Shown piece after piece: positions 45,218-45,484 of a stretch of DNA of 64,000 bases. The translations under genes and the position numbers were made by a program. The stretch spans positions 1 through 64,000 of IMG/VR virus record IMGVR_UViG_3300027742_000009. One strand, written 5' to 3'. Position 1 is the stretch's first letter. Each line of letters starts with the position of its first letter. The notes beneath the pieces are model-generated. The model was not told where the DNA came from. It was given only the letters and a program-made list of their open reading frames with translations, and did no database searches. This stretch comes from a virus.

Positions 45218-45484
45218 ATGAAAAAAATTAAACAAGCAAAATCAATGGGACATAAAAGTAAGGGGACACATGGGTCACTTTCCAAGGCTGGTCGTATTAG
45301 AGGAGAAAATCCCACGCAGTTCGTTAAGGATGAACGTGGAAATTTTAAGAGGGATAAGAAAGGAAGGAAAATTAGATTAGGCAAGAAACATAGTTGTCCG
45401 ATAGTGGCAAACCGTCATAGATACAAGAAGTTGATGGAGAAACCTAAAAGAGATTTTGAACGAATGAGAAGAGGTTTTAAGTAA
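45218..45484 (+). CDS. ribosomal protein eS30 (S30e)-like basic protein
   Basis: [16 protein letters not shown] matches the recalled eS30 signature VHGSLARAGKVRGQTP; downstream KKGRK..NRHRYKK resembles the basic eS30 tail. ATG 45218 is in frame within track ORF 45185-45484. Confidence 0.5.
   Translation: [88 protein letters not shown]

Follow-up and report, generated by a model that had tools for sequence, protein, structure and literature searches.

A divergent, insertion-bearing relative of ribosomal protein eS30 predicted in a tailed archaeal virus and in a wider virus-associated protein family

Most of the ribosomal proteins known to be encoded by viruses come from bacteriophages, in which homologues of bS21, bL12, bL9, bS1 and others have been described (Mizuno et al. 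2019, PMC6375957); such proteins evolve under purifying selection and some of them are incorporated into ribosomes (PMC6375957, PMC8651126). Among archaeal viruses, eL21 (L21e) has been reported from haloarchaeal Hafunaviridae (PMC8651126) and bL19 from a Bathyarchaeia virus (PMC10541130). Ribosomal protein eS30, which is known only from eukaryotes and from TACK and Asgard archaea (PMC11698992), has a single earlier viral relative in the searchable literature, an untranslated antisense fau cDNA in a mouse retrovirus. Here we analyse a stretch of 64,000 nucleotides of viral DNA (positions 1 to 64,000 of the IMG/VR record IMGVR_UViG_3300027742_000009, hereafter the window), in which an open reading frame (ORF) at 45218-45484 is identified by profile alignments as encoding a divergent, insertion-bearing ("long") homologue of eS30. 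Ribosomal proteins encoded by viruses are a known phenomenon, to which it adds a new protein type and a structurally distinct variant of eS30. No report of eS30 (S30e) in archaeal viruses, or of a "long eS30" family, was found in the searchable literature.

The closest counterparts of the window protein are the cellular archaeal eS30 proteins (PF04758; solved chain 9fhl_e; Bathyarchaeia and Thermoproteota S30e of 53-60 amino acids (aa)), with which it shares two collinear motifs, [TS]HGSLxKAGKxR and PxxxNRxxY(E/K)K. It differs from them in being virus-encoded, in its length (88 versus about 53 aa), in the linker between the motifs (35 versus 18 residues), in an extension that stands in place of the "MP" end contacting helix h44, in a new tail that stands in place of "GQNW", and in a Pfam score below the gathering threshold. 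Like the phage ribosomal proteins (PMC6375957), it is encoded as a single homologue by a tailed virus, is kept in related viruses under purifying selection and would presumably tune host translation; unlike them, it is an archaeal/eukaryotic protein from another host domain and belongs to a modified subfamily of its own, not to the near-copies of host genes. The eL21 and bL19 viruses are likewise archaeal tailed viruses with a ribosomal protein homologue, but their proteins belong to the large subunit and are found in few genomes, whereas long eS30 is a small-subunit protein of the mRNA entry and decoding region, with over 100 protein clusters drawn from numerous metagenomes. The retroviral fau sequence is unrelated to long eS30 in mechanism, host and evolutionary history. 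Finally, the eukaryotic FUBI-eS30 precursor is also an eS30 with extra N-terminal sequence and has glycine(s) directly before xHGSL; its extension is a 74-aa ubiquitin-like domain that is removed by USP36, whereas that of the window protein is a 16-aa basic peptide without a ubiquitin fold.

The kinship with eS30 had been proposed in a first-pass annotation made from the letters of the sequence and a list of its ORFs. The ORF is present with exactly the translation quoted there, and the count of 9 identities over 16 core positions is reproduced against the human segment VHGSLARAGKVRGQTP, by direct counting as well as in the phmmer alignment. The same annotation had named the Pfam family Ribosomal_S30 (PF04758) as the test of its proposal, with a mixed outcome. 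For the single sequence this family was the sole match at E≤10, and it was sub-threshold or borderline (E=0.031, 14.9 bits); at the level of profiles, as described below, homology was strong. When the single sequence was compared with all PDB chains by phmmer, 30 matches were obtained at E≤10; 29 of them are eS30, with a best E of 0.015.

Five close homologues were found in the protein database (42-61% BLASTP identity) and were combined with the window protein into a profile of the close family (A1, six sequences). A1 matched 9fhl_e with E=4.7e-6 in two collinear segments, the second of which reads KHKxxPRVxNRKxYEK. The deposited name of this 52-residue chain is "LSU ribosomal protein S30E (Rps30E)"; it appears to be the eS30 of Saccharolobus solfataricus described in PMC11698992. 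When 1.84 billion representative proteins were searched exhaustively with A1 by HMMER, 61 proteins were obtained at E<1e-3, mostly of 60-90 aa, many of which start with MP[ST]HGSLSKAGK. The combined family profile (A2, 65 sequences) aligned to residues 1-48 of 9fhl_e with E=9.6e-12 and matched a second archaeal eS30, 9e71_Ba, with E=4.1e-9; 33 of the 65 family members reach Pfam Ribosomal_S30 at E<0.01 (best 3.3e-11). Direct comparison of A1 with a profile of 20 canonical archaeal eS30 proteins (A5) by hhalign gave a probability of 98.3% and E=1.7e-14, query positions 17-74 being aligned with template positions 3-46. A hidden Markov model (HMM) built from 20 canonical archaeal eS30 proteins assigned 25.8 bits to the window protein, a score that none of 20,000 composition-preserving shuffles reached (best 18.9, next 13.2). 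Together, the profile, hhalign and shuffle results argue that the likeness to eS30 is due to homology and not to chance between basic peptides. We regard both the homology and the viral origin of the gene as practically certain.

The anatomy of the protein was deduced by alignment with a canonical archaeal eS30 of 53 aa, the cellular range being about 50-60 aa. The N-termini of the five homologues line up with ATG 45218 and not with GTG 45185, the start used in public gene calls; because these homologues begin there, ATG 45218 was taken as the start. The alignment thus indicates that GTG 45185 is probably not the true start and that the deposited protein P0001 is probably 11 residues too long. 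The N-terminal signature of eS30, xHGSLxxAGKVR, is present at aa 17-28, and the basic C-terminal segment, P-x3-N-R-x2-Y-(E/K)-K, at aa 61-71. The window protein departs from the canonical cellular form by its 88 aa, its 16-aa extension and a motif spacing of 35 instead of 18 residues. Between the two core motifs, 22 residues stand where canonical eS30 has five, a net gain of about 17 residues. As judged from the alignments, this internal insertion is the most distinctive feature of the protein and the mark by which the virus-associated long form is recognised. The N- and C-terminal extensions described in the first-pass annotation were recovered in alignments to canonical eS30; the insertion and the large virus-associated subfamily had been overlooked. 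The C-terminal tail is kept in P0002-P0005, P0007 and P0076. An AlphaFold2 model computed from the family alignment had a mean predicted local distance difference test score (pLDDT) of 76.7, with helices predicted at residues 20-30, 61-74 and 77-85. Block-mean pLDDT values were 87, 93 and 83 over residues 31-60, a region that contains the insertion and in which isolated strand residues were predicted.

A second database search, with A2, retrieved 2,200 proteins at E≤1e-3. Motif spacing was measured from the end of HGSLxKAG to the proline of PxxxNRxxY in 157 parsable cluster representatives. Nearly all of 46 canonical clusters had a spacing of 18 residues; 13 of these clusters stem from NCBI genomes with names such as Bathyarchaeia and Thermoproteota. 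The spacing ranged from 23 to 46 residues (mode 30-32; window protein 35) in 111 long clusters, none of which has an NCBI genome as its source. Moreover, all of the 11 long-form loci with readable context, the window's own group not being counted, look viral or mobile, and relatives lie on five IMG/VR viral contigs. One long-form gene directly follows an intein-bearing terminase, another is found after a ribonucleotide reductase and before a ligase-domain protein, and the other loci comprise dozens of small ORFs without Pfam match, glycosyltransferases, KaiC-like ATPases, ligases and a histone-fold gene. The latter (contig L021, 5526-5762) has a weak match to Pfam Histone/CBFD_NFYB_HMF and fits an archaeal virus or mobile element. 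A canonical 53-aa eS30, taken as a control, was located on a contig of 269 kb, with genes for an amidohydrolase, an MFS transporter, ELP3 and GatD as its neighbours.

A search of GTDB (one genome per species) gave at least 600 stretches with the N-terminal motif; among the matches listed, a single one was confirmed by tblastn with the window protein. It lies on a short contig (L010) binned in an "uncultured Bdellovibrionales" metagenome-assembled genome, which is almost certainly a mis-binned archaeal virus fragment. The ligase and KaiC-like genes of this contig are also found in the window and in L020.

The N-terminus of the long forms is variable. The canonical MP[ST]HGSL start is kept in 46 of the 111 long clusters, while about 53 of the 111 carry N-terminal extensions of at least 5 residues (range 5-26 aa). 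Sixty-five long forms have more than three residues ahead of the histidine, and in 53 of them a glycine directly precedes [TS]HGSL. Diglycine-style cleavage before THGSL, by analogy with FUBI-eS30, was considered for this glycine at position -1 and rejected as speculation only, there being no ubiquitin-like domain. By contrast with the additions, the eS30 core is strongly constrained: the columns conserved at 90% or more in the 65-member alignment (H18, G19, S20, L21, K23, A24, G25, R28 and P61) are all in the core and none is in the additions. On sequence evidence, the insertion defines a long eS30 family carried on viral or mobile contigs, apart from cellular genomes, and the viral copies are a structurally distinct subfamily and not recent copies of a host gene.

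The ORF is a real gene under purifying selection: pairwise Nei-Gojobori ratios of non-synonymous to synonymous substitution (dN/dS) against its relatives are 0.06-0.39 for pairs with unsaturated synonymous sites. The five close homologues share synteny with the window, and the related contigs L003-L008 come from other, independent samples; the gene was thus found, as the first-pass annotation had suggested checking, in related viral contigs. Gene order in these relatives is zinc ribbon, eS30-like gene, sometimes a variable ORF, thioredoxin, two small ORFs and a very large ORF. The order zinc ribbon-eS30-like-thioredoxin was observed in L003, L005 and L006, and in L004 once an uncalled zinc-ribbon ORF had been added; L007 retains the eS30-like gene followed by thioredoxin. 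The slot occupied in the window by a 108-aa ORF is variable, since it holds an unrelated 160-aa Cys-rich ORF in L003-L005 and nothing in L006 and L007. The placement of the gene between upstream glycan genes and downstream thioredoxin, and its coupling to a zinc-ribbon mini-ORF, had both been described correctly in the first-pass annotation.

This mini-ORF ends one base before ATG 45218, leaving a spacer of 1 nucleotide (nt), and an equivalent lies immediately upstream (0-8 nt) in the close relatives L003, L004, L005, L006 and L008. The same mini-ORF is immediately upstream in a distant virus group (L015, L016 and L025), and in L022 a Cys/His-bearing mini-ORF is found 3 nt upstream of the long-eS30 gene. 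Furthermore, eS30 is fused to a C-terminal CPAC...CW(R/K)C zinc ribbon in five long-eS30 clusters (P0085, P0086, P0090, P0091 and P0096). Zinc-finger mini-proteins are common in archaeal viruses, so that adjacency alone is weak evidence. Conserved adjacency together with the fusions, a "Rosetta-stone" link, suggests that the eS30-like protein and the zinc ribbon may form a functional pair; kinship of the upstream and the fused ribbons is not implied. The possibility that the mini-ORF encodes a ribosomal zinc-ribbon protein was rejected, because its profile matches are weak and generic (eS31/S27ae, E=0.006 over 20 residues; eL37, about 0.09). The fused zinc ribbons had no PDB match and matched Pfam families only below threshold. 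A bacterial promoter and terminator scan around the eS30-like gene performed no better than on shuffled sequences, archaeal promoters being outside the models of the scan.

The window stems from a tailed archaeal virus. It carries large terminase, major head, neck and minor-tail-like genes (Table 1), in agreement with the first-pass description of the gene as virus-encoded, and no tRNA, rRNA or Rfam match was detected in it. The metagenomic contig to which it belongs is 79 kb long and was obtained from a second data set as well. Further genes encode a Rad51/RadA recombinase, an ATP-dependent DNA ligase, a KaiC-like ATPase, an N6/N4 DNA methylase and an archaeal-LonB-like protease. The window RadA falls in a large, probably viral metagenomic clade (59-88% identity, contigs up to 100 kb); cellular RadA proteins are only about 35% identical to it.

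The eS30-like gene is co-directional with a glycan-synthesis island on the plus strand (about 26500-45100) that comprises at least six glycosyltransferases, several methyltransferases, the hexapeptide acyltransferase and the epimerase/dehydratase; glycan genes likewise flank the long-eS30 genes of the viral contigs L015, L017 and L019. The intein-bearing 1177-aa ORF downstream has a long Lys/Glu-rich C-terminal region, and its PHROG matches stem from inteins in other proteins; our guess, from its position, is that it encodes the portal protein. The DUF2341 protein and the adjoining 883-aa ORF are on the strand opposite to the surrounding block and may be adhesin or fibre-type proteins. The products of three protease-type genes (LonB-like, trypsin-like and transglutaminase-core) are candidates for the processing of viral proteins, among them the eS30-like protein with its N-terminal extension.

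Table 1. Coordinates of the features discussed. Positions are those of the window unless another contig is named; parts of the eS30-like protein are listed under its gene, and blank cells mean that no value was given.
Feature	Position	Strand	Details
Neck/tail-completion protein (Neck1)	2964-3470		phrog_5, 3.2e-7
Minor-tail-like protein	6530-8557		PHROG E=2e-5
Trypsin-like peptidase	11198-12091	-	
Archaeal LonB-like AAA+ protease	16536-18683	+	
Transglutaminase-core (cysteine-protease fold) protein	19351-19938	+	
Large terminase	20697-22370	-	phrog_2, 7.7e-15
Major head protein	24150-25157		phrog_267, 3.7e-7
Rad51/RadA-family recombinase	28820-29770	+	Pfam Rad51, 5.4e-48
Hexapeptide acyltransferase	43328-44128	+	Upstream neighbour
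NAD-dependent epimerase/dehydratase	44166-45107	+	Upstream neighbour
Zinc-ribbon mini-ORF	45085-45216	+	43 aa; CPRCG...CPRCG; C-x2-C-x15-C-x2-C, then C-x2-C
Alternative upstream GTG start	45185-45217	+	Public gene calls, 99-aa product P0001; would overlap zinc-ribbon ORF
eS30-like gene	45218-45484	+	88 aa; ATG 45218, stop TAA 45482-45484
N-terminal extension, aa 1-16	45218-45265	+	Basic, Gly at its end; in place of canonical archaeal "MP" N-terminus (alignments)
eS30 N-terminal core motif, aa 17-33	45266-45316	+	Canonical positions 3-19 (canonical HMM, hhalign)
Internal insertion, aa 34-55	45317-45382	+	22 residues; canonical eS30, 5 residues (canonical HMM, hhalign)
eS30 C-terminal core motif, aa 56-71	45383-45430	+	Canonical HMM positions 25-40; second segment of 9fhl_e match
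Lineage-specific C-terminal tail, aa 72-88	45431-45481	+	In place of canonical "...LQRKxGQNW" end
108-aa ORF between eS30-like gene and thioredoxin	45526-45852	+	No Pfam match
Thioredoxin	45846-46127	+	Pfam Thioredoxin E=9.6e-21; downstream synteny anchor in related viruses
1177-aa ORF with LAGLIDADG-type intein	46516-50049	+	Intein at about aa 138-490; Pfam LAGLIDADG_3, 2.4e-9
883-aa ORF	52707-55358	-	No family match
DUF2341-domain protein	55369-56415	-	2.4e-11; adjoins 883-aa ORF
Ligase and KaiC-like pair	60888-62772		
eS30-zinc-ribbon fusion P0090	L019, 2723-3052		
KaiC-like ATPase	L010, 200-1225		L010 = CAYYIQ010000367.1, 1787 bp; GTDB match
Long eS30	L010, 1222-1464		
Ligase-like ORF	L010, 1467-end		KxDG motif

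Concerning the host, the first-pass annotation had argued from the presence of eS30 for an archaeon, which is reasonable given that eS30 is confined to TACK and Asgard archaea and eukaryotes (PMC11698992) and that the window carries Rad51/RadA-type and archaeal LonB-type genes. An eS30 site is confined, among archaea, to the TACK and Asgard groups, one of which therefore probably includes the host. The GC content is 34.7%. Neither the terminase nor the eS30-like protein had a match in GenBank phage or archaeal-virus records. The C-terminal motif "SGQN(W)" is common to many long forms and to eS30 of the Bathyarchaeia type. Only about 45 columns can be aligned, and the retrievable set of canonical eS30 proteins is dominated by Bathyarchaeia; because this set is too biased, we do not name a donor lineage.

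On the ribosome, archaeal eS30 lies in the mRNA entry channel and touches h16, and Pro2 of the S. solfataricus protein packs on h44 beside the A site (PMC11698992). Eukaryotic eS30 lies between h16 and h18, its basic C-terminal residues line the mRNA channel and its N-terminus points toward the decoding centre (PMC8354635). In human cells, an uncleavable N-terminal fusion on eS30 is dominant-negative and is predicted to obstruct tRNA access (PMC8354635). We propose that, after infection, the viral protein would dock through its retained core on the host 30S subunit at the eS30 site, where it would lie in the mRNA entry channel between h16 and h18, its N-terminus pointing to h44 and the A site. 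There it would replace host eS30 or compete with it. The basic, glycine-hinged N-terminal extension, the insertion and the helical tail would remodel the entry channel and the decoding region, and the outcome would be that translation is biased to viral mRNAs or is kept running during infection, probably by joint action with the co-translated zinc-ribbon mini-protein. Comparable mechanisms have been suggested for phage bS21 (PMC6375957) and for further ribosomal proteins of viruses. From the conserved core and from this analogy, ribosome binding with a pro-viral role appears somewhat more probable to us than all other roles. A more specific version, in which long eS30 and its coupled or fused zinc ribbon would be a two-part module at the entry channel and decoding centre, producing virus-customised ribosomes that decode or select viral mRNAs differently, is tentative and can be offered only as a possibility.

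Several observations weigh against this interpretation. The single sequence scores 14.9 bits, under the Pfam gathering score of 27 bits. Ribosome binding is a prediction from the sequence, and the existence of an eS30 site in the host ribosome is an assumption; the viral RadA, as noted, resembles cellular proteins at only about 35% identity. The 16-aa extension would sit where the canonical N-terminus packs against h44. This position, together with the dominant-negative human fusion, implies that the extended form may need processing or may inhibit translation. Small basic proteins are also easily re-used for other nucleic-acid-binding roles. Lastly, Foldseek searches of PDB and BFVD with the AlphaFold2 monomer model gave no significant match and none to eS30. 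Off the ribosome eS30 is not independently folded, and it takes shape only on rRNA. Hence, this negative result is weak and expected evidence.

The best-surviving alternative is that the protein is a ribosome-targeting inhibitor or decoy. Its core would dock at the eS30 site, and either the extension would block the A site and h44 or the insertion would block the entry channel, the outcome being host translation shut-off or stalled 30S maturation and not a working "viral" ribosome. The packing of canonical Pro2 on h44 next to the A site and the dominant-negative effect of uncleavable human eS30 fusions both speak for it, and so do the extensions of 5-26 aa present on the window protein and on roughly half of the long forms. 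Viral shut-off is, moreover, known to target the mRNA entry channel, as in the case of SARS-CoV-2 Nsp1. A canonical MP[ST]HGSL start in 46 of 111 long forms nevertheless indicates that what the whole family shares is the insertion rather than an A-site plug. Viruses, too, depend on translation for the expression of their genes, and the conserved glycine hinge (53 of 65) fits a flexible tail or processing by a viral protease. We therefore consider this inhibitor or decoy role unlikely, although it is the strongest competitor of a pro-viral ribosomal role.

Somewhat less likely still is that an eS30-derived basic protein has been exapted for nucleic-acid binding off the ribosome, either as a genome-condensing or virion-internal protein or as an RNA/DNA chaperone acting with the zinc ribbon. 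The protein is very basic, its gene lies in the window in a long co-directional block running into structural genes, in one virus it comes directly after the terminase, and it often adjoins zinc-finger mini-proteins and is sometimes fused to one. Yet the strongest conservation across divergent viral lineages falls on the core motifs that are near-invariant in cellular eS30, and a generic polycation would not need HGSLxKAG and P...NR..Y. The position of the gene also varies (after ribonucleotide reductase, after terminase, between KaiC-like ATPase and ligase), which argues that it has no consistent link to the packaging module.

Two further explanations are effectively refuted. As eS30 is normally a core cellular gene, the contig could have been cellular or chimeric, through host DNA or mis-assembly, and its gene an ordinary cellular eS30; this is very improbable, given the terminase, head, neck and tail genes and the lack of tRNA and rRNA on the contig, the same gene order in independent samples, and an insertion that sets the protein apart from all canonical cellular eS30, of which the canonical control stood in a cellular context. 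Chance likeness in a short Lys/Arg-rich peptide, or an ORF that is not a gene, would fit the sub-threshold single-sequence Pfam match (E=0.031, 14.9 versus 27 bits) and the empty Foldseek result, but can be dismissed as the most remote reading of all in view of the hhalign value (E=1.7e-14), the two collinear motif matches, the 0 of 20,000 shuffles and the conserved homologues with dN/dS below 0.4.

Whereas virus-encoded ribosomal proteins have been a matter mainly of bacteriophages, here a small-subunit protein of eukaryotes and of TACK and Asgard archaea is found in many archaeal viruses. Long eS30 points to strategies of translational takeover in archaeal viruses, and its viral variants are natural "mutants" that could open the function of eS30 in archaea to experiment. 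The insertion also provides a simple sequence marker for archaeal viral contigs and narrows their hosts to eS30-bearing archaea. If the two-part module tentatively suggested above is real, it would amount to a system for ribosome remodelling that is specific to viruses and operates in the archaea most closely related to eukaryotes.

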